Assembly: GCA_038064015.1 (NCBI GenBank)
Contig: JBBTUB010000023.1
Span: 369 to 64,368 of the forward strand
From: Patescibacteria group bacterium
GTDB taxonomy: Bacteria; Patescibacteriota; Minisyncoccia; 2-02-FULL-40-12; IGHO2-01-FULL-4-A
Length of the DNA stretch: 64,000 bases
Reading direction: 5' to 3'
The position numbers and the translations under genes are program-made. Under the pieces are notes generated by a model. That model saw only the letters and a list, made by a program, of their open reading frames with translations. It searched no databases and was not told the DNA's origin. Of the stretch, positions 3,522 through 58,340 are shown piece after piece (the first letter of the stretch is position 1; each line of letters opens with the position of its first letter).

Positions 3522-3651
3522 GGATTAAATATACCAGAAAGCCGCTATAAAATCACCTGTCACAAAAAACACTATGATACGTTATATGCACTAGGTCAAG
3601 AACGCTTGGCCAAAGTTTTCCAAACCCTCCCGTCCAGGAGAAGAAACGAAA

Positions 3652-3915
3652 ATGGCTCCACGGCACGAGTGTCCCGTAAAGGCTCTCCATGATGCTCTGC
3701 AACGCCTCGAAGACGTCAGGCGAGGCAGAAAAGATGTCGCCGCTCCGAGCGACACAACTCTGATTACCTACTTCGATCTGGCGATGAGTAAGCATGAGTT
3801 TGGGCAGCTCGCTCGAACTCGCGCTCTCGATCGCTTGGTCCCCCTCAGACCACACCTTGTCAGAAGTCTTGGTGAGAAGTATAGCCTCACCCCCACGCCC
3901 CGACAGCAGAAATAG
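3652..3915 (+). CDS. GC-rich orphan cassette 1: 87-aa hypothetical protein with its own SD and terminator
   Basis: AGGAG sits 11 nt before the ATG. The ORF is visibly GC3-richer than its neighbours and is followed by an intrinsic terminator. No homolog recognised. Confidence 0.5.
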   Translation: MAPRHECPVKALHDALQRLEDVRRGRKDVAAPSDTTLITYFDLAMSKHEFGQLARTRALDRLVPLRPHLVRSLGEKYSLTPTPRQQK

Positions 3916-3958
3916 CTCCCCAGCGGCTCGATCATTATTTCGATTCGAGTCCGCAACA

Positions 3959-3998
3959 CCCGTCGTCGCCTACGTGCGTCGGCGGGCTGTTCATTTTT
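3959..3998 (+). terminator. intrinsic terminator of cassette 1
   Basis: A GC-rich stem (cccgtcg ... cggcggg) is followed by ctgttcatttttat. Confidence 0.55.
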
Positions 3999-4003
3999 AT
4001 ACT

Positions 4004-4019
4004 ACTGTACTAGTACAGT
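4004..4019. repeat. perfect 16-bp palindrome ACTGTACTAGTACAGT
   Basis: The sequence is its own reverse complement. It sits between the convergent 3' ends of cassette 1 and lysS. Confidence 0.7.
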
Positions 4020-4036
4020 GTCGTAAAAGCAGAATA

Positions 4037-8624: not shown

Positions 8625-9412
8625 GGTGAGAAGATGAAAAGTATGGAGCTTTGTGCGGGATCAAAAAGCAGTGAAGCTCGCACGTCTTTAAAAAGCGTGT
8701 TCTCCCCGCGGTCAACATGGGCAACCGTGCCGATGGCCAACCCCTCCGGGAACACATCAAGGCCGCTCGTCACAATGGTAGCTCCGACCTCAAGGGTTTC
8801 AGTATGGGCAATGAGATTAATTGCGGCTTCGTTGCGCAACGCTCCTTTGGACTCGGCAAGAATCGACGTCCCAAGAACCCGCGCGCTGATGATGCGCCGC
8901 GGATCATCAGCCAAAATCACTCGGGATGAATGCTCAAATGCCTCTCCGATGGTACCAACCAAAATATTGCCCGGGGCAACCACCACCATACCCGACGCCA
9001 GGCCATCAGCTTTCCCTCGATCGATCATAAGCGTGGAGACCAACGGGGTTCGCTGAAGCGAGAAAATTTTTGCCGCTATCCGCGCCGGCTGCGTCCGGCC
9101 TTCCACGCGAAGTTGCCGCCGGAGCGCTTCGTTCTCGCGCTCAAGCGCTTCGGTTGTTACAATCTTACCGATAAGCTCATTACGCTCTTGCTCGAGCTTT
9201 GCGATTCTTTTGCTTTGCAGTTTGCTTTCAAAAAACGATACCGGCCGAGCGGCAATGCGGTAGAAAAAACCCTGCAACGGATTGCTCAAAAACACGCTGT
9301 TGAGCGCGATGATGACAGCTACCACAATCACAATTTTTAGATATAGGCTTCTTTTGCGCTCCATACGAGAATGGGCTTGAGCTCTTCGATATGTTCGAGA
9401 ACCATACCGCAC
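8621..9412 (-). CDS. mreC: rod shape-determining protein MreC
   Basis: An N-terminal TM segment and coiled coil (KLEQERNELIGKIVTTEALERENEALRRQL) precede a beta-barrel domain. The true start is probably the internal MERKRS. Confidence 0.8.
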   Translation of the reverse strand: MRYGSRTYRRAQAHSRMERKRSLYLKIVIVVAVIIALNSVFLSNPLQGFFYRIAARPVSFFESKLQSKRIAKLEQERNELIGKIVTTEALERENEALRRQLRVEGRTQPARIAAKIFSLQRTPLVSTLMIDRGKADGLASGMVVVAPGNILVGTIGEAFEHSSRVILADDPRRIISARVLGTSILAESKGALRNEAAINLIAHTETLEVGATIVTSGLDVFPEGLAIGTVAHVDRGENTLFKDVRASLLFDPAQSSILFIFSP

Positions 9413-10386
9413 CCGCGCACGACCGAAGTAAGCGGGTCGTCGATGATTTTGACGGGGAGATTGGTCTCGTGATTAATCAGTTCGTCCAGTCCGCGAAGTA
9501 AGCTGCCCCCGCCGGCCAAGATGATGCTTCGATTGATAAGATCCGCGATCAGTTCAGGCGGAGTTTCCTCGATGGTATTTTTGATCGCCACGACGATCGC
9601 GCGGATGGAGCCGTGCATCGCTTTGCGGATCTCTTGAGAATTCACGCTGATTTCTTTGGGAAGTCCCGTCAGCACATCACGCCCCCGCACGCGCATGGTG
9701 AGTTCTTCAGCCAGCGGGTACGCCGAACCGACGGTAAGCTTGATCGTCTCCGCGGTCATTTCACCGATGAGCATATTGTGCTCATCGCGGACAAATTGCG
9801 TGATATCGGTGGTGAGGCGGTCGCCCGCGATTTTCAGTGACCGTGAAGCAACGACGCCTCCCATGGAAATCACCGCCACGTCCGTGGTGCCTCCGCCAAT
9901 GTCCACCACAAAATTCGCTGCCGCTTCTTGGACGGGCAACCGAGCACCCAGGGCGGCGGCCATCGGTTCTTCAATCAGGTAGACCTCTCGCGCGCCGGCA
10001 TTGTACGCGGCGTCTTCGACGGCTTTTTTCTCGACCTCCGTGATACTGGCAGGAATTCCTATTACCACACGAGGACGCGGGACAAGGGTAAAAGATTTTT
10101 GGTGGGCACGATCAATGAAATATTTGAGCATCTGCTCGGTCACTTCAAAGTCCGAGACAACGCCGGCGATCAAAGGCTTGGAGACCTGGATGAACCCGGG
10201 CGTACGGCCAACCATCTTTCGTGCCTCCTGGCCGATTGCCAGTATTTGCCCGGTTTTTTTATTGATCGCGACAATCGACGGCTCATTGATGATGATGCCT
10301 TCATTCTTTACGTATACCAATGTATTGGCAGTACCGAGGTCAATGCCAATGTCTTTTGAAAAAAGCCCGAAAAGCTTGTTGAGCAT
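9337..10386 (-). CDS. mreB: actin-like rod shape-determining protein MreB
   Basis: IGIDLGTANTLVY, DIGGGTTDVAVIS and ILAGGGSLLRGLDELI are canonical MreB/actin-fold motifs. Confidence 0.95.
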   Translation of the reverse strand: MLNKLFGLFSKDIGIDLGTANTLVYVKNEGIIINEPSIVAINKKTGQILAIGQEARKMVGRTPGFIQVSKPLIAGVVSDFEVTEQMLKYFIDRAHQKSFTLVPRPRVVIGIPASITEVEKKAVEDAAYNAGAREVYLIEEPMAAALGARLPVQEAAANFVVDIGGGTTDVAVISMGGVVASRSLKIAGDRLTTDITQFVRDEHNMLIGEMTAETIKLTVGSAYPLAEELTMRVRGRDVLTGLPKEISVNSQEIRKAMHGSIRAIVVAIKNTIEETPPELIADLINRSIILAGGGSLLRGLDELINHETNLPVKIIDDPLTSVVRGCGMVLEHIEELKPILVWSAKEAYI

Positions 10387-20679: not shown

Positions 20680-20703
20680 ACCTTGAGTATAGCAAGGAAA
20701 AGT

Positions 20704-20757
20704 AGAATTTTAAAAGGCCCGGCACGCGTGTTGTTACACATGGTGTGCGCCGGGCCC
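20704..20757 (-). terminator. intrinsic terminator of cassette 2
   Basis: A ggcccggc ... gccgggcc stem with an inner hairpin. On the minus strand it is followed by TTTTAAAATTC. Confidence 0.6.
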
Positions 20758-20788
20758 CTTACTCGCGGTTGCCGCGAGGTACTGGTGG

Positions 20789-21082
20789 TCATACTGGAGG
20801 AGGCGATCTCGAAGTCCATCGGTCTAATCTATAATACATATAGATTAGACCGATGAAGATCACCACTCCTTCGACGTAGAAGATCCAGGGGAAGAACATG
20901 TCGAGCTGCTGACTGGCCAGCTCTAGAGGGGTTTCTCCCCATGGGCCAGTAGAGAGCTGGGCAGCCCTCCACGACACGATCCTGCCACTGTTCAGGGTAA
21001 CCCCAAGTGCGCTCCATATCATGGCGGCCCAACTTATGGCCCCGGACAGGATGACGTGGATAGCCCATAGTGTTCTGCGCAT
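20789..21082 (-). CDS. GC-rich orphan cassette 2: 97-aa two-TM membrane protein
   Basis: GGAGG sits 5 nt before the ATG at 21082. A TTGACT-18-TATAAT promoter lies upstream and a terminator downstream. The composition is atypical for this window. Confidence 0.55.
   Translation of the reverse strand: MRRTLWAIHVILSGAISWAAMIWSALGVTLNSGRIVSWRAAQLSTGPWGETPLELASQQLDMFFPWIFYVEGVVIFIGLIYMYYRLDRWTSRSPPPV
20817..20855. repeat. perfect 17-bp inverted repeat (CATCGGTCTAATCTATA / TATAGATTAGACCGATG, 5-nt loop) inside the cassette 2 CDS
   Basis: Both arms read directly from the sequence. The repeat is exact over 17 bp. Confidence 0.9.
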
Positions 21083-21123
21083 GAATGCCTCCAAAATCGC
21101 CGAGCTGAACCCGACGTGATCAT

Positions 21124-21153
21124 ATTATACCACGCTTTATATTAAAAAGTCAA
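21124..21153 (-). promoter_or_regulatory. sigma70-like promoter of cassette 2 (TTGACT-18 nt-TATAAT)
   Basis: The minus strand reads ttgactttttaatataaagcgtggtataat, ending about 40 nt upstream of the ATG. Confidence 0.55.
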
Positions 21154-21167
21154 ATCAAGGCACCGAG

Positions 21168-32225: not shown

Positions 32226-32280
32226 ATTTTCTCATTGCAGTCTTTTGCAAAATGCTGCAATGAATGCTCAAAACGAATAA

Positions 32281-32314
32281 CAGCCCGACTTTTTCCGAAG
32301 AAAAAGCAGGGCTG
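32281..32314. terminator. bidirectional hairpin terminator between uvrB (+) and cassette 3 (-)
   Basis: CAGCCCgaCTTTTTCcgaaGAAAAAGcaGGGCTG is a double hairpin with T-runs on both strands. Confidence 0.65.
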
Positions 32315-32360
32315 CAGAAACTAAGCGACCACGGTAGTAAGGACCCGAGGTCCGAAGAGG

Positions 32361-32780
32361 CTACTTGCGAAGACGGACGGAGACGCTGTTGCGATTGAAG
32401 TTGTGGCCGAGGTAGTAGCAAAAGAACAGCGTGCGCTTCTTGCCACGCCGTGGGCTGAGACATGGCACAACCCAGCAGCCGCTCGGACCCCGCCCAACCG
32501 TCCCTAGCGCGAGCAGGTACTTGTCGTCCAGCTCGCGCGGGATTTTGGTGACCATGCCCCGCAGGCACTCGAGGTGCTTCAGGCCTGCGGCGACCTCCCT
32601 TTCCTTGACCCAGAGTATCTTGCCCTTGATCACGTCCCCGTCTCCCTCCTGAAGGACGGGGACGAACTCCAGAGTTTCGCCCCCGATGAAGGGAACGTCT
32701 TCTATAAGCTCCCAGCCGTCATTGGAGCCTGACGGAGGCTTCAACTGCATTTGTGGGATAGGCCATATGTGCGTTGCCAT
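32361..32780 (-). CDS. GC-rich orphan cassette 3: 139-aa hypothetical protein
   Basis: AAGGAGG sits 8 nt before the ATG at 32780 (MATHIWPIPQ...). The composition is atypical, with a terminator downstream. The ORF-track start at 32840 is an extension. Confidence 0.5.
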   Translation of the reverse strand: MATHIWPIPQMQLKPPSGSNDGWELIEDVPFIGGETLEFVPVLQEGDGDVIKGKILWVKEREVAAGLKHLECLRGMVTKIPRELDDKYLLALGTVGRGPSGCWVVPCLSPRRGKKRTLFFCYYLGHNFNRNSVSVRLRK

Positions 32781-32810
32781 GAGTTTTTTCCTCCTTTCAT
32801 GGCTTCGGAT

Positions 32811-32850
32811 ACAGCACTGAATACATGAATCTTCACACACTCAATGCTGT
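32811..32850. promoter_or_regulatory. inverted repeat ACAGCACTGA-N20-TCAATGCTGT in the divergent cassette 3 / rpsT promoter region
   Basis: Nine of ten positions pair. It overlaps the TTGAGT / TATTCA promoter-like hexamers of cassette 3, so an operator is plausible. Confidence 0.4.
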
Positions 32851-32978
32851 ACCCGATCTTCGCAAAGTAGCTTCAAATCAAAGAACAAATATGTCTCGTA
32901 TCAAACCACAAATCGGTTATTTACGCAAGATCGCGAAAACGCTTGTTTTTTTACAAGAAGTATAGTATTATTTCCTTC

Positions 32979-33245
32979 ATGCCTATTACTACATCAGCCA
33001 AGAAAGCGCTTCGACAGTCAAAGCGCAAGAAATCATTCAATGACCGCCGCAAGCGGCTCTATCGTGATGCCGTCAAAGAGTTCAAAAAAGCAGTCGCCGC
33101 CAAGGAATTTGACAAAGCAAAATCGCTGCTCCCCCAGGTCTATAAGCGACTGGACAAAGCAGCGAAGTCTCATACCATTGCCAAAAACAAAGCGAGCCGA
33201 ACCAAGTCTCGTCTTACTGCACTGATGAAGTCGCCGAAGGCGTAG
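32979..33245 (+). CDS. rpsT: 30S ribosomal protein S20
   Basis: MPITTSAKKALRQSKRKKSFNDRRKRLYRDAVKEF is the bS20 pattern. A TATTAT -10 lies about 7 nt upstream, so the transcript is leaderless or has no SD. Confidence 0.9.
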   Translation: MPITTSAKKALRQSKRKKSFNDRRKRLYRDAVKEFKKAVAAKEFDKAKSLLPQVYKRLDKAAKSHTIAKNKASRTKSRLTALMKSPKA

Positions 33246-33561
33246 GCTTGAGAGTTTCTCTCGAACGCTTTTCTTTCTTTGCCTCAGTTTGTGCTTGCTT
33301 GAGGCAAGCATTTTTGACGCGCACGGCCATCTCATGCTTCTTCTTCGCTTCCTTCATGGCAACTTTGTACGCTTCCTCCGCACGGCGAAATCCGACTTTA
33401 CATGCGTCTGCCGAAGTTCCCTCAGGGACACTGATAGCCGCCGTCGTATCATCCGAAGAACCGGAAAAGCCAACGGTTTCTATGGCATTCAGATTCGCGG
33501 CATCGCCAATCGCGAACCCACCAACGAACAGGAGTCCTGCTGCAAGAATGAGTTTATTCAT
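33214..33561 (-). CDS. small secreted hypothetical protein (signal peptide plus Lys-rich tail)
   Basis: It starts MNKLILAAGLLFVGGFAIGDAANL. A TATAAT -10 lies 6 nt before the ATG. The composition is host-like. Confidence 0.5.
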   Translation of the reverse strand: MNKLILAAGLLFVGGFAIGDAANLNAIETVGFSGSSDDTTAAISVPEGTSADACKVGFRRAEEAYKVAMKEAKKKHEMAVRVKNACLKQAQTEAKKEKRSRETLKPTPSATSSVQ

Positions 33562-39222: not shown

Positions 39223-42584
<3,362 letters not shown>

Positions 42585-42587
42585 GAT

Positions 42588-44051
42588 CTATCTCGGATAA
42601 TTAGGAGATTGTTCGGTAATTTCAATATCGTGGGGGTGCGATTCGACGACGCCGGAGTGGGTAATCTGGACAAACTTTGCTTTCTTTTGGAGGTCGGGGA
42701 TATTCTTGGCGCCGCAATAGCCCATACCGGCACGGAGGCCGCCCATGATCTGGTGAATCGTTTCGGACACACTGCCGCGAAACGGCACGCGCCCCTCGAT
42801 GCCTTCGGGCACGAGCTTGGCAAGATTCTCTTCCATATCCTGAAAATACCGATCGCGCGTCCCCTCGCGCATCGCCGCTTGCGATCCCATGCCACGATAC
42901 ATTTTGTATTTGCGGCCTTGGAAGAGCACCGTCTTGCCCGGCGCTTCTTCGTGTCCCGCGAGCATATTGCCGAGCATGACCGAGTCGGCACCGGCGGCAA
43001 GGGCTTTGGGTACATCACCGGTATACTTGATGCCGCCATCAGCGATGACGGGAATCCCTTGCTTGGAGCACACAGCGGCCACATCCATGACCGCGGTGAG
43101 CTGGGGTACGCCGACGCCGGCGATCACGCGCGTCGTACAAATCGAGCCGGGACCGACGCCCACTTTGACGGCATCCACACCGGCTTTGATGGAAGCCAGC
43201 GCGGCTTCAGCCGTGACGAGGTTGCCGCTGATCATCTGGAGATCCGGATATGAGGCACGGATCTCGCGGATACGGTCGAGGACTTTTTTGGCGTGGCCAT
43301 GCGCCGTGTCGACGGTGATAACATCCACGCCAGCTTTGACGAGGGCTTCGACGCGCTCAAGCGTATCTGTAGCGACGCCGACCGCCGCACCAACACGAAG
43401 TCGGCCGTGTTCATCCTTGCAGGCATGGGGATGGCTTTTCTTTTTCTCAATGTCTTTAAACGTGATCAGACCTTTTAATATTTTTTGTTTATCTACGATG
43501 AGAAGCTTCTCGATTTTATTTTTTTGCAAAATTACTTCAGCATCTTTGAGCGTCGTGCCGACGGGCGCCGTGATGAGCTTTTCCGTCATAATCTCGTGGA
43601 GCTTCGTACTGCCGGCAACTTCAAAGCGCAGGTCGCGATTTGTCACGATGCCGACGAGCTTGCCCGTCTTCTCAATAATCGGAATTCCGCTGATCCGATT
43701 TTTGCGCATGAGCTCGAGTGCCTGCTTGACGGTGTCGCGTGGGCCGAGCGTGACCGGATCCATGATCATGCCTGACTCGGAGCGCTTCACCTTATCTACC
43801 ATCTCGGCTTGTAGTTGGATGGAGAGATTTTTATGAAGGATGCCGATACCGCCTTCGCGGGCCAAGGCGATGGCCATTTCCGACTCCGTGATGGTGTCCA
43901 TGGCCGCGCCCACGATCGGGATATTGAGCTCGATGCCACGCGTCAGCCGCGTCCGGACATCCACATCCCGCGGCGACACATCCGACGCATCGGGGATCAA
44001 CAACACATCGTCGTACGTGAGTCCAAGCTGAGTGATTTTGGAGGTTGCCAT
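42588..44051 (-). CDS. guaB: IMP dehydrogenase
   Basis: A TIM barrel with a tandem CBS insert. It has the catalytic Cys loop [11 protein letters not shown] and [24 protein letters not shown] -10 lies 9 nt before the ATG, so it looks leaderless. Confidence 0.95.
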
Positions 44052-44100
44052 TGAGTTTTTACTATATCAATGGTAGCTTGTTTTCGCAAGGAGGTCGGCA

Positions 44101-44226
44101 TGAATTGCACAGAAGCTCTCCTCGCGCTCGAGTTTCCGATCGCATACGGTCTCGAGGCGGAAAAAAGAGCAGTTGAACACTGGCGCTCGTGCAAGGAGTG
44201 CCAGAAATCGGTAACGCCGAAATGAA
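44101..44226 (+). CDS. GC-rich orphan cassette 4: 41-aa Cys-containing micro-protein (C-X27-CxxC with His)
   Basis: AAGGAGG sits 5 nt before the ATG. The product is MNCTEALLALEFPIAYGLEAEKRAVEHWRSCKECQKSVTPK. An intrinsic terminator follows. A structured-RNA alternative is not excluded. Confidence 0.35.
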
Positions 44227-44262
44227 AGGAGACAGGTCATGCCACGTGCCCCCTAGTACCCG

Positions 44263-44297
44263 ACCGCCGGCCCCCGCCGACGGTCAACTCTTTTTAT
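44263..44297 (+). terminator. intrinsic terminator after cassette 4
   Basis: gaccgccggc-cccc-gccgacggtc pairs at 9 of 10 positions and is followed by aactcttttta. Confidence 0.5.
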
Positions 44298-44427
44298 AGG
44301 ATCCCTAGCGAGCAACAGTGAGCTTTCAAGCAAAACCTTATCACAGCGCGACTGGCGCGAGATAGGAGGGAGCGATTTCAGCAGAAATCGACGACTGGTT
44401 TTGCGGAAGGCTCACGGTCGCGAGCGT

Positions 44428-49718: not shown

Positions 49719-51160
49719 GACAACGGCAGGGTCGGGGTGAGTTTTTCGGGAGGCGAGCTGGGAGCACTTACTTCACGGGTACGTTCACGCAGATCGATCG
49801 GATACTCACCAGTAAAGCAATGCGTGCTGAATTTAAGTGGATCAATTCCGGTCGCGGTGAGCATGCCCTGGAGCGAAAGATAGTGCAGCGAAGCAGCGCC
49901 GATATATTGCCGGATTTCTTCGTTGTTCTTCGTAGCGGCGATCAAGTTGCGCTGATTGGGCGTATCAATGCCATAAAAATCGGGAAACTTGATCGGTGGC
50001 GAGCTGACCAGAAAATGGACTTCTTTGGCTCCTGCATCCAAAATACTACGAACGATTTGTCCCGACGTGGTACCGCGCACAATCGAGTCATCTACGAGTA
50101 CTACTCGTTTGCCTCGGAGAACGTTGGGAAGTGGCGTGAGCTTGAGCTTGACCCCAAGATCGCGCGAGTGCGGATCCGGCTCGATGAACGTGCGGTGAAT
50201 ATAGCGATTTTTGACTAGTGCCATTTCAAGCGGCATGCCGGTCGCCTGCGAATAGCCAAGCGCCACGGGAATCGCCGTCTCCGGCACGGGGACGACAAGA
50301 TCAGCCGTAATTGCTGTCTCACGGGCAAGCTGGGTACCAAAATTGTGCCGGACGTCGTAGACCGACTTGCCCAGCAGTTCGCTATCAGGACGCGCGAAGT
50401 AGACGAACTCAAAAACATCAAACTTGGGGGTCCCCGGCTGGATCTGGACCGACTCGATCGAGCCCTCCGTCACGATCACCATCTCGCCCGGCTCGATCTC
50501 GCGGACAAAGTCGGCGCCAATGGTCGCGAATGCGCAGGTTTCGGATGCAAAGACGATGCCGCCATTGAGCTTCGCCATCGCCAGCGGCCGCATGCCATAG
50601 CTGTCGCGGATCGCCGCCACGCTGTCCTTGGTCATCACCACAAGTGAAAACGCTCCGGTGAAGAGCGGATAGGCGGTCGTGATCGCTTCTTTGAGGGTGC
50701 AGCCGTTTTTAAAAAAATAACTGATGGCGTGTGCCATCAGTTCGGAGTCATTCAAGTCAGCAACGGGAATATTTTTTGACTTGAGAAAATTTTCCAGAGC
50801 AATCGTGCTGGGAAGATTGCCATTATGAGCCAGCGCGAGCTCGGGTCCCGAGTCTGTCGAGCGGTGGCCAATGACCACCGGCTGCGCGTGGGCAATGCCG
50901 GTCGCCTTGGACGTCGAGTAGCGATTATGCCCGATCGCCAGGTGCCCGCTCAATCGATGGATATCACTTTCGGAATACACATGCGTTACCAGGCCGGTGT
51001 TCTTGTAGCATTGAATGGCGGTGCCATCGCTTGTCGCGATGCCGGAGCTTTCTTGACCGCGATGCTGCAAGGCAAAAAGCCCATAAAAGGTAAGTCGACT
51101 GACATCCATGCCCTTGCCATAAATGCCAAACACGCCGCATTTTTCATTCAGCTCGCTCAT
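49715..51160 (-). CDS. purF: amidophosphoribosyltransferase
   Basis: An Ntn Cys2 (MSELNEKCGVFGI) is followed by a GATase II domain and the PRTase motif VVLVDDSIVRGTT. Confidence 0.95.
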   Translation of the reverse strand: MSELNEKCGVFGIYGKGMDVSRLTFYGLFALQHRGQESSGIATSDGTAIQCYKNTGLVTHVYSESDIHRLSGHLAIGHNRYSTSKATGIAHAQPVVIGHRSTDSGPELALAHNGNLPSTIALENFLKSKNIPVADLNDSELMAHAISYFFKNGCTLKEAITTAYPLFTGAFSLVVMTKDSVAAIRDSYGMRPLAMAKLNGGIVFASETCAFATIGADFVREIEPGEMVIVTEGSIESVQIQPGTPKFDVFEFVYFARPDSELLGKSVYDVRHNFGTQLARETAITADLVVPVPETAIPVALGYSQATGMPLEMALVKNRYIHRTFIEPDPHSRDLGVKLKLTPLPNVLRGKRVVLVDDSIVRGTTSGQIVRSILDAGAKEVHFLVSSPPIKFPDFYGIDTPNQRNLIAATKNNEEIRQYIGAASLHYLSLQGMLTATGIDPLKFSTHCFTGEYPIDLRERTREVSAPSSPPEKLTPTLPLS

Positions 51161-51813
51161 GTGAAATACTTAATTGCGTTTTTAAAAATTTGGATGCCGT
51201 GTCCTCCGCGTTGCCAGGGGAACTGCGCCCGCTCCGGGTGCGGCATCATGCCCAGCACTCTCCCATCATATCCCAAAACCCCCGCGATGTCATCTGTCGA
51301 GCCATTGGGGTTTTGGACATAGCGAAACGCCACCTCAATCTTGCCGTTTTTGATATATTTGCCTTCTCCATGCGCAATCGGCACTTCCAGTTTGTTGATT
51401 CCTTCGAGCCATGGGCTCTCGCCGATTTTTTCAATTTCTACCCACGTCGAGATATAGCGCTTGCTGTCATTGTGTGTGAGCGCCCCAGGAAGAAGTCCCA
51501 TGTTGGTCATGATTTGAAAGCCGTTACAGATACCGATGGCCAGCGTGTCGCGCGCAATAAATTTTTGGATCTCATCGCCAAGCTTCGCTTTGAGCTTATT
51601 CGCAAAGGCTTTGCCTGATCCTGTATCATCGCCAAATGAAAAGCCTCCCGGAATGACGAAAATCTGATAATTTTTTAAGCTTTGTAAATCATTCACATGC
51701 ACAATCTCCGCCTTCGCCCCGGCCGTCTCAAACGCAAACGCCGTCTCGTCTTCGCAGTTGAGGCCATAGCCAGAAAGGACTAGGACCTTAGGTTTTAGCT
51801 TCGTTAGCTTCAT
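51157..51813 (-). CDS. purQ: FGAM synthase glutaminase subunit PurQ
   Basis: Class I GATase with GICNGFQ (Cys) and HPER. It begins with a tandem 9-mer repeat encoding KLTKLKPK. Confidence 0.9.
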   Translation of the reverse strand: MKLTKLKPKVLVLSGYGLNCEDETAFAFETAGAKAEIVHVNDLQSLKNYQIFVIPGGFSFGDDTGSGKAFANKLKAKLGDEIQKFIARDTLAIGICNGFQIMTNMGLLPGALTHNDSKRYISTWVEIEKIGESPWLEGINKLEVPIAHGEGKYIKNGKIEVAFRYVQNPNGSTDDIAGVLGYDGRVLGMMPHPERAQFPWQRGGHGIQIFKNAIKYFT

Positions 51814-51828
51814 TAGCTTAAATTAGGC

Positions 51829-51860
51829 TTGACATGATGATGATGATGATGATGTAAAAT
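51829..51860 (+). promoter_or_regulatory. promoter of cassette 5: TTGACA-(ATG)7 spacer (20 nt)-TAAAAT
   Basis: Consensus -35 at 51829-34. The microsatellite (ATG)7 runs 51834-51854. The -10-like TAAAAT is at 51855-60, about 25 nt before the ATG. Confidence 0.5.
51834..51854. repeat. trinucleotide microsatellite (ATG)7
   Basis: Exact 7 units, read directly. On the other strand it creates a spurious His7-encoding ORF. Confidence 0.95.
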
Positions 51861-51884
51861 CATACTCGAAAGTGAGGTGGCCAC

Positions 51885-52112
51885 ATGGCTACATTGACCG
51901 ATTCTTCGAAGAGGAAACTCGATTCGCTCGAACGCGGAGAGGGATTCGTCAGCATCCGCATGGACCAGGGGACGCTGGCAAACCAACTCGCCGAGATGAG
52001 CGAGGCCGAACTGAGGGGTGTCCTGAGGAAGCTTCGGAACACGACCGACGGCTTCAAGGGGTTCCACGGCAAGCTCAACACCTCGCTCACCAAGCTCCTC
52101 GAGCACGAGTAA
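51885..52112 (+). CDS. GC-rich orphan cassette 5: 75-aa hypothetical protein
   Basis: GAGGTGG SD 4-5 nt before the ATG. MATLTDSSKRKLDSLERGEGFVSIRMDQGTLANQLAEMSEAELRGVLRKL may be HTH-like. A terminator follows. Confidence 0.5.
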   Translation: MATLTDSSKRKLDSLERGEGFVSIRMDQGTLANQLAEMSEAELRGVLRKLRNTTDGFKGFHGKLNTSLTKLLEHE

Positions 52113-52138
52113 CCTCTCCTCGTTCTCTTCCTCCCGCG

Positions 52139-52167
52139 CCGGACCCCCTGTGGTCCGGCTTTTTTTA
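52139..52167 (+). terminator. intrinsic terminator of cassette 5
   Basis: ccggaccccctgtggtccgg is followed by ctttttttat. Confidence 0.65.
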
Positions 52168-52220
52168 TTCCTACACGACATTCCAACATTCTTGAGAATG
52201 TGAGAATGTCGCTCGTATGG

Positions 52221-54806
52221 TTAATAATTTTTGAATGTTTCATGGTAGGCATCGGTGGCTGCTTTGATTGATAGGGTAACGGCGTGAGTGTCCTTTTGGA
52301 TTACGATCGTAGATGAAAGGGACACGGTGCCAATCTGCTTGGCATCCGGTAGCGCCTTTTCAAATGCTTTTTGATTTTCGGGCGAAATTGAAACAATTAT
52401 TCCTGACATTGATTCGTCATTCTTCATTCGTAATTCGACATTCATACCCAGCTGCCCCCCAATCGCGGATTTTGCCAGCGCCACATAAACTCCACCACGC
52501 CCGATACTGATTCCTGAATTGATGAGATTTTTCTGGACGGCTTTGAAGTAAGCTTTTAGGTTGTAGGTGTTAGCTTTTAGGAGATAGATTAAATCGCCGG
52601 GGGTTTTGAGATCTTCAGTCACCGTCTTCGTGACATCGGGAATCACACCAAGCGCAGAGATCAGTAGTGTAGGCAGGATCGAAATCTTGATCGGCTTGCC
52701 AGCGGCATCATAGCCTTTGAAGTCATTGAACATGCTGTCTTTGCCGGAAATAAACGGCGTACCGTAGGCGACCGCGGTATCGTACGCGCCGCGGCAGGCT
52801 TCTTTGAGTTGCCAGAGCCGCTCGGGATCGTTGGAACTGCACCAGCAAAAATTATCGAGCAAAGCGATATAGTCCGGATCGGCGCCGATCGCAACGGCAT
52901 CTTGGATTGCCTGTTCGATCACATACTTCGCCATTTCATAGGGGTTTTCTTCGGTCATCTCGGGCGCTAACGCATGACTCATGACAATGCCGCGTTTTGA
53001 TCCCAGCACGGGTGCCAGCACCGATGAGTTGCCATTAATCATCCCCTTCCCCTGGAGCGGACCAATGACTGCGGTACCTTGGACGGTGTGGTCGTACTGG
53101 CGAGAGACAAATTCGTAGCTTGTGATATTTGGACTCGCCAGTAGTTCTAAGAGTTTTTGATTTGATATTTTAGAATTTGAAATTTGTTTGTGATTTGGTG
53201 CTTGTGGCTTGGTGCTTTTTTGTATCTTCACCGGACGTCCGTCATGCAAAAACTTCATATCAAGATCCAGTACCGTCTTACCATGATACTTCACGACGCA
53301 TTTTTTTGATTTTGTAAATTTCCCGATCACCGTCGCCTCAACACCGCGACGAGCCATCAGGTCGCTAAATTTCTTCCATTTTGAGGGTGGCACAGCCAGC
53401 GTCATGCGCTCCTGTGACTCCGAGATCCAGATTTGCCATGGCTCCAGGCCCGGATATTTGAGCGGAACTTTATCGAGCTCGACTTCACAGCCGCCTGATT
53501 CTTTTGCCATTTCTCCGACGGAGCATGACAAACCTCCTGCGCCGTTGTCTGTAATACTGTGATAGAGGCCAAGGTCGCGTACTTCTCTAATAAGGACGTC
53601 ACTGAATTTTTTTTGAGTAATCGGATCACCGATCTGGACAGCAGAGGCGGGACTAAGCGGATTTAAGGATTCTGATGAAAATGTCGCTCCATGAATGCCA
53701 TCAGCACCCACGCGTCCACCCAACATGACAATGTAATCGCCGGGCAAAGCTTTTTTGATATGCGATTGTTTGCCGTGAACTTTTCTAGGGATCAGGCCCA
53801 CCGTCCCCGCAAATACCAAGGGCTTCCCTCGGTAGCGATCATCGAAATACAAGAATCCTTGCGGCGTCGGAATGCCCGATTGATTACCACCGGCATTGAT
53901 GCCCTCGATGACGCCGTCCATAATTTGACGCGTAGAAAGCATCGGTTGGGTGAGCCTCACATCACGATATAGTTTTTGAATATTATTCAATGGAGCCAGA
54001 CAAAATCCATACACATTTGCGATCGGCTTCGCCCCAAGTCCAAATCCGAGAGTATCGCGATTGACTGCGACAATTCCGGTAATCGCTCCTCCGAACGGAT
54101 CAATTGCCGAAGGCGCATTATGCGTCTCGACTTTGTGAGTGATGAGATAGTTATCGTCAAATGCAATCGCCCCTGAATTATCACTAAAAACTGAAACGCA
54201 GAATTTTTTGTTTATTTTCTTCGTCGCGGCTTTTATATAGTGCCGGTACAGCCCATCTTTGATCTCATCGAGCGGATCGGCAAAAATCGTATGCTTGCAA
54301 TGCTCTGACCAAGTCTGCGCCAACGCTTCAAGCTCGACATCAGTCACCACGTTTCGGTAATCTCTGATCGCTCGCATCGAAGCAAGGTCAAGCGCAAGCG
54401 TGCGCTCTTGGCTTATTTGCATCAGCTCTTCGTCGCTGACATTGAGATCGATTTTTTGGGCCTGGTGCGGTGGTGGGAGCACGACTCGAGGAACAGGCAA
54501 AAATTTATTTCTCGACGCACGCTGGATTAAGGGATTAAAAGCAGGCGGGTTTTTGAAATAAATACTCGAGGAATACGTGCGGTGGCCGAGCATTTCGGTT
54601 GCCGTATTGCCGACGTTATCAGTCACCCCCGGCAAAAACCCAATCTCAATAAACGGCGGCTTTGCCGTGATCACTTCCTCAATGAGCGGGTTAAGCAAAA
54701 GCGCTGTACAGCGCTTGATTTCTTTCGCAGAGAGACGGGCATCGATCGTATACACCGAGGCCTTTGAGTTGTCGAGTCTTGAGATAATCGTGATCCAGAC
54801 TGCCAT
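52221..54806 (-). CDS. purL: FGAM synthase subunit PurL (small-PurL type) with a ~110-aa N-terminal extension that may be PurS-like
   Basis: WSEHCKHTIF is the PurL linker motif. Tandem AIRS-like domains (DNGAGG..., GKDSMFND...) follow. The extension has an LPGVTDNVGNTATEMLG segment loosely like the PurS V.DPQG.A....L..LG motif. Confidence 0.9.
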   Translation of the reverse strand: MAVWITIISRLDNSKASVYTIDARLSAKEIKRCTALLLNPLIEEVITAKPPFIEIGFLPGVTDNVGNTATEMLGHRTYSSSIYFKNPPAFNPLIQRASRNKFLPVPRVVLPPPHQAQKIDLNVSDEELMQISQERTLALDLASMRAIRDYRNVVTDVELEALAQTWSEHCKHTIFADPLDEIKDGLYRHYIKAATKKINKKFCVSVFSDNSGAIAFDDNYLITHKVETHNAPSAIDPFGGAITGIVAVNRDTLGFGLGAKPIANVYGFCLAPLNNIQKLYRDVRLTQPMLSTRQIMDGVIEGINAGGNQSGIPTPQGFLYFDDRYRGKPLVFAGTVGLIPRKVHGKQSHIKKALPGDYIVMLGGRVGADGIHGATFSSESLNPLSPASAVQIGDPITQKKFSDVLIREVRDLGLYHSITDNGAGGLSCSVGEMAKESGGCEVELDKVPLKYPGLEPWQIWISESQERMTLAVPPSKWKKFSDLMARRGVEATVIGKFTKSKKCVVKYHGKTVLDLDMKFLHDGRPVKIQKSTKPQAPNHKQISNSKISNQKLLELLASPNITSYEFVSRQYDHTVQGTAVIGPLQGKGMINGNSSVLAPVLGSKRGIVMSHALAPEMTEENPYEMAKYVIEQAIQDAVAIGADPDYIALLDNFCWCSSNDPERLWQLKEACRGAYDTAVAYGTPFISGKDSMFNDFKGYDAAGKPIKISILPTLLISALGVIPDVTKTVTEDLKTPGDLIYLLKANTYNLKAYFKAVQKNLINSGISIGRGGVYVALAKSAIGGQLGMNVELRMKNDESMSGIIVSISPENQKAFEKALPDAKQIGTVSLSSTIVIQKDTHAVTLSIKAATDAYHETFKNY

Positions 54807-56788: not shown

Positions 56789-56961
56789 AGACTCTGAATT
56801 CCTCCGATAATGCTCACGATAATCAAAAACGTAAATATGCCGATGCCGACATAGTACATCAGAATCGCGAACTTCGTCGCCATCGGGTTGTGCATGTTCG
56901 AGTCACGAATGACAATCCCCACTCCATAAAAAATTATCGCGATAATTCCCAGCCAGATCAT
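56785..56961 (-). CDS. 58-aa two-TM micro-protein, translationally coupled between aspS and dacA
   Basis: The product is MIWLGIIAIIFYGVGIVIRDSNMHNPMATKFAILMYYVGIGIFTFLIIVSIIGGIQSL. Its ATG overlaps the aspS TGA (ATGA), and its TGA overlaps the dacA ATG (ATGA). Confidence 0.45.
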   Translation of the reverse strand: MIWLGIIAIIFYGVGIVIRDSNMHNPMATKFAILMYYVGIGIFTFLIIVSIIGGIQSL

Positions 56962-58340
56962 TTTTTGATTTGCAAATGCAATTCTTTTAATTGTTTCTCC
57001 TCAAGTTCCGACGGCGAATGCATCATGAGGTCACGAGCATCGCCGGTTTTCGGAAATGGGATGATCTCGCGGATATTCGGCTCCCCCGCCAAGAGCATAA
57101 TAAATCGATCAAAACCCCAGGCGATCCCTCCGTGCGGCGGCGCGCCATACGAAAAAGCCTCAAACATGTGCTTAAAATCGCTTTGGATCTTCTCCTCGCT
57201 CAATCCGATGATATCAAGCACCGCTCGAAGCGCCTCCGGCTTGTGGTTGCGAATACTCCCGCCGCCGATTTCGTTGCCATTCAACACAATATCATATTGG
57301 GAAGTAAGAATATGCTCGATGTTTTTGGCACCCATAAGATCCTCCTTGTGTTCCGGCTTCGGAGCAGAAAAAGGATTGTGGGTGAATGTCCATCCGCCTG
57401 TTTCTGTTTTCTCGAAAAACGGGAAATCAACCACCCAGCAAAACGCCAAGAGATTCGGATCGTTTTTGTCTTCACGAACATCCGGCCGGTCGGTTTGGTA
57501 TGTTTCCATCGCCTCTTGATACCTCAAGCGTGGAAATGGAATCTGCTGAATTTTTTTTTCGGGAGTAAGTTTTTGGACAATTTCAATCAGCAACGCTTCG
57601 GTCAACGCCATGACATCTTCGCGCTCGACAAACGACATCTCAAGGTCAAGCTGGGTAAATTCAGGCTGTCGATCCCCTCGTGTGTCTTCATCGCGAAAAC
57701 AGCGTGCGATCTGGAAATATTTTTCCACACCCGCAACCATGAGGAGTTGCTTATACTGCTGGGGAGACTGTGGCAAGCCGTAGAATTTCCCGGAATAAAG
57801 CCGAGATGGCACGACATACGTCCGGGCGCCGGTATCGACGGTTGCCTTGGTCAGGATTGGCGTCTCGATCTCATAAAAACCCTGGCCATCCAAATAATCC
57901 CGAATAAGCTTGGTCACGTGGTGGCGAAGTTTGAGATTCTTTTGCATACGCTCCCGGCGTAAGTCCAAGTAGCGATACTGCATCCGAATTTCTTCATCGA
58001 TTTCTTTCCCATCAGTATCGAGCGGGAAGGGCGCAGTCTGCGCGCTGGAAAGCACCTCAAGCGTCTCAGGCTGGAGCTCCACCTTGCCGGTCGGAATCTC
58101 GGGGTTGATCATTTTCTCCGGGCGGGCGGCAACCGTGCCGGTAATTTTGACGACATACTCGGACCGAAGCTGATTTGCCTGCTCATAGAGCGCGCCCGTA
58201 AAGACAACCTGAACCACGCCGGATCGGTCGCGCAGGTCGATAAAAATCAGCTTGCCGTGATCTCGCCTGGTATGCACCCACCCAAAAACCTCCACCTGCT
58301 CTCCGACCTTGTCTTTGGTATCTAAAATATGCGTCCGCAT
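56958..58340 (-). CDS. aspS: aspartyl-tRNA synthetase, bacterial-type catalytic core with no GAD insertion
   Basis: An N-terminal OB anticodon domain (VEVFGWVHTRRDHGKLIFIDLRD) is followed by motif 2 FRDEDTRGDRQPEFTQLDLEMSF and motif 3 GGIAWGFDRFIMLL. At 460 aa, ...DRPDVREDKNDPNLLAFCWVVDFPFFE runs straight through where the GAD domain would be. Confidence 0.9.
   Translation of the reverse strand: MRTHILDTKDKVGEQVEVFGWVHTRRDHGKLIFIDLRDRSGVVQVVFTGALYEQANQLRSEYVVKITGTVAARPEKMINPEIPTGKVELQPETLEVLSSAQTAPFPLDTDGKEIDEEIRMQYRYLDLRRERMQKNLKLRHHVTKLIRDYLDGQGFYEIETPILTKATVDTGARTYVVPSRLYSGKFYGLPQSPQQYKQLLMVAGVEKYFQIARCFRDEDTRGDRQPEFTQLDLEMSFVEREDVMALTEALLIEIVQKLTPEKKIQQIPFPRLRYQEAMETYQTDRPDVREDKNDPNLLAFCWVVDFPFFEKTETGGWTFTHNPFSAPKPEHKEDLMGAKNIEHILTSQYDIVLNGNEIGGGSIRNHKPEALRAVLDIIGLSEEKIQSDFKHMFEAFSYGAPPHGGIAWGFDRFIMLLAGEPNIREIIPFPKTGDARDLMMHSPSELEEKQLKELHLQIKK

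Follow-up and report, generated by a model that had tools for sequence, protein, structure and literature searches.

The perfect (ATG)7 microsatellite described here, (CAT)7 on the opposite strand, is best explained as the spacer of a real promoter, made by slippage, tunable in length and now detuned, with the anatomy of a promoter-spacer switch. We hold this reading tentatively, at a probability of about 0.45. The tract belongs to a Patescibacteria MAG, probably related to Saccharibacteria, that was obtained from groundwater of Hainich well H51; the whole stretch of DNA that was analysed, 64,000 nucleotides, is referred to as the window. In the proposed mechanism, slipped-strand expansion would have made the tract, which would now form the whole spacer of a sigma-70-type promoter. 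This promoter would serve a foreign and self-contained mini-gene, consisting of the promoter, a Shine-Dalgarno sequence, a 75-aa ORFan and a terminator, which would have been inserted antisense between purL and purQ. Because the 20-nt spacing at seven copies exceeds that of the native promoters by 2-4 nt, the sequenced state is most likely low or off. Six copies (17 nt) would give a near-consensus, strong promoter, and eight copies (23 nt) or five copies (14 nt) would be off as well. Competition with purQ could be the reason that the allele seen is the detuned one with 7 copies. The sequence features thus make the locus a plausible candidate, of a known kind, for promoter-spacer switching.

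The stretch around the tract reads aaattaggcTTGACATGATGATGATGATGATGATGTAAAATcatactcgaaagtGAGGTGGccacATGgct. Direct reading of the plus strand gives a -35-like hexamer TTGACA at 51829-51834 and a -10-like hexamer TAAAAT at 51855-51860; the last A of the former is the first base of the repeat. The spacer between them (51835-51854) is 20 nt long, and all 20 of its bases belong to the tract (51834-51854), for which Tandem Repeats Finder reports a period of 3, 7.0 copies and 100% matches. The initial annotation had placed (ATG)7 between these two hexamers with a 20-nt spacing and had stated that the loss of one repeat would lead to a spacing of 17 nt. Both statements hold. For n copies the spacer is 3n-1 nt, which amounts to 14, 17, 20 and 23 nt at 5, 6, 7 and 8 copies. 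TTGACA occurs 23 times on the two strands of the window, and only the hexamer at 51829 pairs with TAnAAT at a distance of 15-21 nt; neither strand has a TTGACA-N15-21-TAnAAT pair other than the cassette promoter. By a rough, post hoc estimate, a given tract would have TTGAC and TAnAAT on its two sides, at a distance of 0-2 nt, with a probability of 1.5e-5. At the motif level, therefore, the tract lies between -35 and -10, the position that defines promoter-spacer phase variation.

A number of alternative elements within the tract were considered and rejected. No other -10 or -35 boxes inside the repeat lie at 16-18 nt, and with the GATGAT boxes the spacer would be no longer than 13 nt. An extended -10 (TGnTAnnnT) is ruled out, as the TG directly abuts TAAAAT and is one base too close. 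A plus-strand M7 mini-ORF, (ATG)7TAA, has no Shine-Dalgarno sequence, and the TAnnnT box nearest to it (TAAATT, 51819-24) is 9 nt away. As single-stranded DNA, (ATG)7 has no hairpin or inverted-repeat potential; the spacer is a pure direct repeat.

The tract is also the only one of its kind in its surroundings. Period-3 runs with two copies number 1077 in the 64-kb window and those with three copies 21; there are none with four to six copies and one with seven. (ATG)7 is the sole trinucleotide tract of more than 3 copies in these 64 kb and the sole tract of at least 15 bp among unit sizes of 1-6. In 40 order-2 Markov simulations, the longest period-3 run was 9-16 nt, compared with the 21 nt observed. 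Trinucleotide tracts of at least 5 copies were absent from the 311 kb of other loci examined. With seven perfect units against a maximum of three elsewhere in the window, the tract has the properties of a hypermutable tract as known from SSR phase variation.

The native genes of the window give an indication of the promoter geometry that the host uses. Shine-Dalgarno sequences are almost never present at these genes. A TAnnnT box is found 5-7 nt 5' of the start codon in 13 of 53 native genes, compared with 3.6% of all ATGs (binomial p=3.6e-8), which suggests that leaderless mRNAs are widespread in this Patescibacteria lineage. The genes with such a box include those at 52221-54806 (purL), 9337-10386, 33214-33561 and 56958-58340, and TTGnnn is often located 16-18 nt upstream of the box; examples are TTGACT-18-TACACT at purL and TTGACG-16-TACAGT at the gene at 9337-10386. 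Among the 13 native leaderless-type promoters, 7 of the 8 -35 matches of at least 4/6 are located at 16, 17 or 18 nt and none at 19-21 nt, a preference that comes from a small sample of motif-level examples and not from mapped transcription starts. The spacing of 20 nt, already described as off-optimum, is thus off-optimum in the host too. Because the native motifs indicate canonical sigma-70 geometry, the promoter with seven copies is probably weak or off and that with six copies would be near-optimal.

Downstream of the two hexamers, the signals of a complete gene follow on the plus strand at the right distances, in agreement with the earlier proposal that the promoter belongs to the cassette gene. 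From the usual 7-nt distance to the -10, transcription would be expected to start near 51867. A Shine-Dalgarno sequence, GAGGTGG (51874-51880), is located 4 nt before the ATG of a 75-aa ORFan (51885-52112; MEK7583302.1, hypothetical protein AAB483_02780). The tract lies upstream of this ATG at 51885 and is thus outside the coding frame of the cassette, as had been claimed. An intrinsic terminator (52138-52166), 26 nt past the stop codon of the ORF, has a stem of 8 bp, of which 7 are GC pairs, and a T7 run behind it, and its hairpin has a predicted energy of -17.1 kcal/mol (z -4.6). It should stop the cassette transcript and yet let purL transcription read through, because no U-tract follows the hairpin on the minus strand. 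The cassette mRNA has a predicted 5' UTR (51867-51900, plus strand) that can fold (-10.7 kcal/mol, z -2.0), with the Shine-Dalgarno sequence paired to the first codons. This fold might damp cassette translation.

Codon-position GC content identifies the coding strand. The GC contents at positions 1, 2 and 3 of the plus-strand ORF are 0.55, 0.39 and 0.80, a coding pattern, compared with 0.56, 0.39 and 0.56 in native genes. A 122-aa ORF on the minus strand (51813-52181) contains the His7 run, and its stop codon overlaps the purQ ATG (TAATG). It is called as a gene in the ENA assembly. However, its GC contents are 0.68, 0.41 and 0.54, the first of which mirrors the third-position value of the plus-strand ORF, a mark of an in-register antisense frame. 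It is a database singleton and has no Shine-Dalgarno sequence. Codon-position GC, the missing Shine-Dalgarno sequence and the orientation of the terminator rule it out as a real gene; the His7 ORF had been called spurious, and it is indeed a shadow frame.

The product of the 75-aa ORF has no relatives among the sequences searched, being a singleton in 5.8 billion clusters (word-indexed) and in 1.84 billion representatives (full HMMER). Searches of Pfam, NCBIfam, PHROGs and PADLOC gave no family above cut-off and no defence-system match; a sub-threshold hit to DUF5837 (17 bits against a cut-off of 25) was not used. An AF2 model consists of three helices (pLDDT 75, pTM 0.37), and a Foldseek search of the PDB with this model gave no fold match. 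The protein is predicted to be helical and charged and looks cytoplasmic.

The cassette lies in DNA that was added to a purine biosynthesis gene cluster. Nearly all genes in the window are on the minus strand. In the order of transcription, purL (FGAM synthase II; 52221-54806, minus strand, with AIRS, AIRS_C and FGAR-AT linker domains) is followed by a 407-bp gap, purQ (FGAM synthase glutaminase subunit; 51157-51813, minus strand, PF13507, E 3e-62), purF and purN. Two relatives drawn from species-representative genomes were compared at this junction. In L006, the closest relative found, which comes from the same well and has a 78% identical PurQ, purL and purQ overlap by 23 nt and there is no insert. 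In L005 (~75% identity), the junction holds an unrelated, co-directional 115-aa ORF. As these two genomes show, the 407-bp gap is therefore an insertion. It is lineage-specific and spans 51814-52220, from the purQ start codon to the purL stop codon. The first codons of purQ were rebuilt (MKLTKL-KPKV, compared with MRLSKAIKPRV in L006). The best match in a metagenome scan for closer relatives with a PurQ alignment was 56% identical, too distant for the junction. No DNA match of the insert was found in phage and plasmid collections, and Rfam gave no match at the gathering threshold in the window; in 51700-52330, relaxing the E value to 5 brought up nothing but noise.

Several other observations concern inserts and purine genes in this lineage. 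The 115-aa ORF of L005, a related Saccharibacteria MAG, is AT-rich (L005:3655-4002), and its end, ...CAT CAT GAA TAA, overlaps the purQ ATG. Small genes may have inserted at the purL/purQ junction more than once. Small GC-rich inserts between native genes are found in the window at 20680-21167 (minus strand), 32280-32860 (minus strand), 44052-44300 (plus strand) and 51814-52220 (plus strand), and possibly at 3522-4036. Each of them has a strong Shine-Dalgarno sequence and a GC-rich hairpin terminator, unlike native genes. They share no sequence with one another; with the missing phage and plasmid matches of the 51814-52220 insert, this led us to reject a mobile-element or integron-like family. 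A 139-aa ORF at 32361-32780 has a GC3 of 0.77 and is a database singleton. The plus-strand ORF at 44100-44225 (41 aa, Shine-Dalgarno sequence AGGAGG) is preceded by TTGAGT-17 nt-TAGCTT (44051-44100), and the spacer between these two hexamers contains a TATAGT box (minus strand, 44066-44061) that belongs to the divergent guaB gene. At the motif level only, this is a second insert promoter that overlaps the start region of a purine-pathway gene. In PurL itself (861 aa), the FGAR-AT linker is preceded by an N-terminal extension of ~120 aa, and no separate purS adjoins purQ or purL. The purL gene may be a purS-purL fusion.

The position of the tract within the insertion supports a serious rival to the spacer reading, in which replication slippage or repair at the edge nearest to purQ left (ATG)7 behind as a neutral scar, the promoter is dead or coincidental and the copy number is inconsequential. 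We consider this doubtful but well worth weighing. The insertion boundary lies at a distance of 20 bp from the tract, and a 9-bp tandem repeat, GAAGCTAAN (minus strand, 2.8 copies, 51795-51819), which spans the purQ start codon and rebuilt it, lies at 15 bp. The presence of this second repeat suggests general slippage at the junction rather than selection and is a point against the spacer reading. The initial annotation had missed the insertion edge, this adjoining repeat and the overlap of the tract with the upstream half of the probable purQ promoter, all of which open other explanations. In L005, the homologous purQ start context has CATCATG (2 units), and purL ends in ...TAC CAT GAA, so a CAT seed was on hand. 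However, the CAT-seed homology is without statistical support, and the origin of the seed from a duplicated purL tail, which rests on an ambiguous alignment, was set aside as speculation. Seven copies are fixed in all assemblies. The ORFan, having no homologue, shows no sign of selection. On the other hand, a perfect 7-copy tract, in a window that otherwise does not go beyond 3 copies, has either formed recently or been maintained, and exact, consensus-grade -35 and -10 flanks together with a properly spaced Shine-Dalgarno sequence, ATG and terminator are very unlikely to have arisen by chance.

The GAAGCTAAN unit (minus strand) is also repeated 4.6 times at 41970-42013, in a 40-nt gap just upstream of the purA ATG. 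The identity of one pair of 25-mers is 92%, and the pattern matches 7 times compared with 0.5 expected. The arrays may represent a cis-element that purine genes share, or they may be a product of gene conversion or slippage.

A second rival shares the anatomy of the spacer reading and goes further. It holds that the tract is a true high-frequency contingency locus, in which alleles of 6, 7 and 8 copies are carried by different sub-populations at the same time and the ORFan is reversibly switched on and off. We regard this as unlikely. The tract is above the cut-off of at least 5 units that PhasomeIt applies to longer repeat units, though that study left out trinucleotides, which cannot cause a frameshift of a coding region (PMC6321876). 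The copy-number data argue weakly against frequent switching. Exactly seven copies with 100% identical flanks are present in the NCBI MAG, in the ENA assembly ERZ1292627 (72,767 nt) and in the Logan contigs of runs ERR3858113 and ERR3858114, and an ENA contig of 73,181 nt encodes the exact His7 ORF, hence also seven copies. Exact-protein and cluster look-ups of the His7 ORF, the 75-aa ORF and PurQ returned only singletons and no allele with another copy number; among 15 billion proteins there were no His6 or His8 variants of the antisense ORF and no PurQ variants of at least 90% identity. In both runs, the Logan contigs pass through the tract unbroken; their break, at 52180-52206, comes after the terminator. 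As a test of variation these data are weak, for they cover one well, at the ~6.8x coverage stated in the contig name, and consensus assemblies that report the majority allele. The earlier proposal of a phase-variation switch driven by slippage thus stands as far as the anatomy is concerned, and the assemblies (one well, ~6.8x) show none of the variation in repeat number that it calls for.

The ends of the Logan contigs at 52180-52206 lie in a TGAGAATG repeat of 2.1 copies, with an overlap of ~26 nt. They may reflect low coverage or a branch in the graph.

Other evidence also counts against a contingency locus. With (ATG)7 as the single such tract in 64 kb, nothing points to a lifestyle based on contingency loci. 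The literature searched contained no account of SSR phase variation in Patescibacteria or Saccharibacteria; in a Gracilibacterium, repeat hypervariation within a coding gene has been described (PMC6851277). Several of these points bear on the spacer reading as well. No assembly contains a variant repeat number, and the databases searched hold no other strain or homologue of the locus in which conservation or variability could be compared. Seven trinucleotide units make a modest tract, and the rate of slippage may be too low for useful switching. In addition, the comparison with contingency genes made earlier does not seem to suit the gene that would be controlled: the ORFan is cytoplasmic-looking, without relatives and apparently not a gene of the surface or contingency type.

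On its other side, the tract reaches into the start region of purQ. A TAATTT hexamer (51820-51825, minus strand), 6 nt before the purQ ATG at 51813, is the probable -10 of a leaderless purQ promoter, and purQ is among the 13 native genes with a TAnnnT box. The (CAT)7 strand occupies positions -22 to -42 of this putative promoter. The position of its -35 falls inside the repeat, where the best match is 3/6 and stays the same at any copy number. Judged from these motifs, the cassette and purQ promoters overlap back to back. Since the insertion separated purQ from purL and ended the translational coupling of the two, purQ plausibly depends on its own leaderless promoter. With only 3 bp between the cassette -35 and the probable purQ -10, a strong promoter on the cassette side would be expected to compete with the transcription of purQ.

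This arrangement allows a more ambitious and improbable scenario, in which the locus would be the first contingency locus of the CPR. Six copies would turn on the horizontally acquired ORFan and at the same time turn down leaderless purQ through competition for RNA polymerase. Some cells, by chance, would thereby trade purine synthesis de novo for expression of the foreign gene.

The peptide of enterobacterial hisL has 7 His residues among its 16 amino acids, and a minus-strand ORF of 16 codons, MILHHHHHHHVKPNLS (MILH7VKPNLS), likewise contains 7 consecutive His codons and ends in TAATG directly before a biosynthetic gene. We nevertheless consider it very improbable that the tract acts on the minus strand for purQ, either as the -35 or upstream region of the leaderless promoter, where TAATTT-N6-ATG does fit the native pattern and the repeat is suitably placed at -22 to -42 but offers the same 3/6 match whatever its length, or as a hisL-like mini-ORF that couples purQ translation to histidine supply, since both hallmarks of such an attenuator are missing: the mini-ORF has neither a Shine-Dalgarno sequence nor a TAnnnT box (leaderless -10) before its ATG, its stop codon overlaps the purQ start and leaves no room for alternative terminator and antiterminator hairpins, purQ is not a histidine gene, and there is no Rfam leader or riboswitch match.

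The spacer reading can be compared with a number of known systems. The opa-type loci cited by the initial annotation are the wrong analogy, as the CTCTT repeat of opa is located in the coding region and not in the promoter. In the porA and opc genes of Neisseria meningitidis and the vlp genes of Mycoplasma hyorhinis, the length of a homopolymer in the spacer sets the promoter spacing and the expression level. The (ATG)7 repeat would set promoter spacing in the same way; the known systems differ in their homopolymers, 1-bp steps, rheostat behaviour, surface antigens and documented variation. Promoters of the MerR family have spacers of 19-20 bp between good -35 and -10 boxes. The cassette promoter similarly has an over-long spacer between good boxes, but this spacer is a direct repeat that lacks the dyad operator, and the adjacent genes, purL, purQ and purF, include none that resembles merR.

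The right analogy is hifA/hifB of Haemophilus influenzae, in which (TA)9-11 occupies the shared spacer of divergent, overlapping promoters (van Ham 1993, summarised in PMC2651432). In both cases, a perfect short repeat fills the -35/-10 spacer in a region common to two divergently transcribed genes, and a change in unit number shifts the spacing across the 16-18 bp optimum. There are clear differences. The cassette repeat is a trinucleotide that changes in 3-bp steps and has one ON length only, and it lies in the spacer of just one of the two promoters. It precedes an ORFan instead of a fimbrial operon, no length polymorphism is seen, and its host lives in groundwater, either free or as an episymbiont. 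Trinucleotide SSRs of H. influenzae have shown no link to phase variation (PMC2651432). A trinucleotide does control transcription at the vlhA genes of Mycoplasma gallisepticum, where (GAA)n is located ~40 nt upstream of the promoter core (PMC6258824). That repeat is outside the -35/-10 spacer and belongs to a large paralogous family, whereas (ATG)7 is found at a single locus.

To our knowledge, almost all known promoter switches driven by repeats are those of pathogens adapted to a host. If the cassette switch is real, it would be a known mechanism in a new phylum-level setting. A working switch would extend slippage bet-hedging to the Candidate Phyla Radiation, in ultra-small Patescibacteria of groundwater, and would provide a handle on how reduced genomes tame newly acquired genes.
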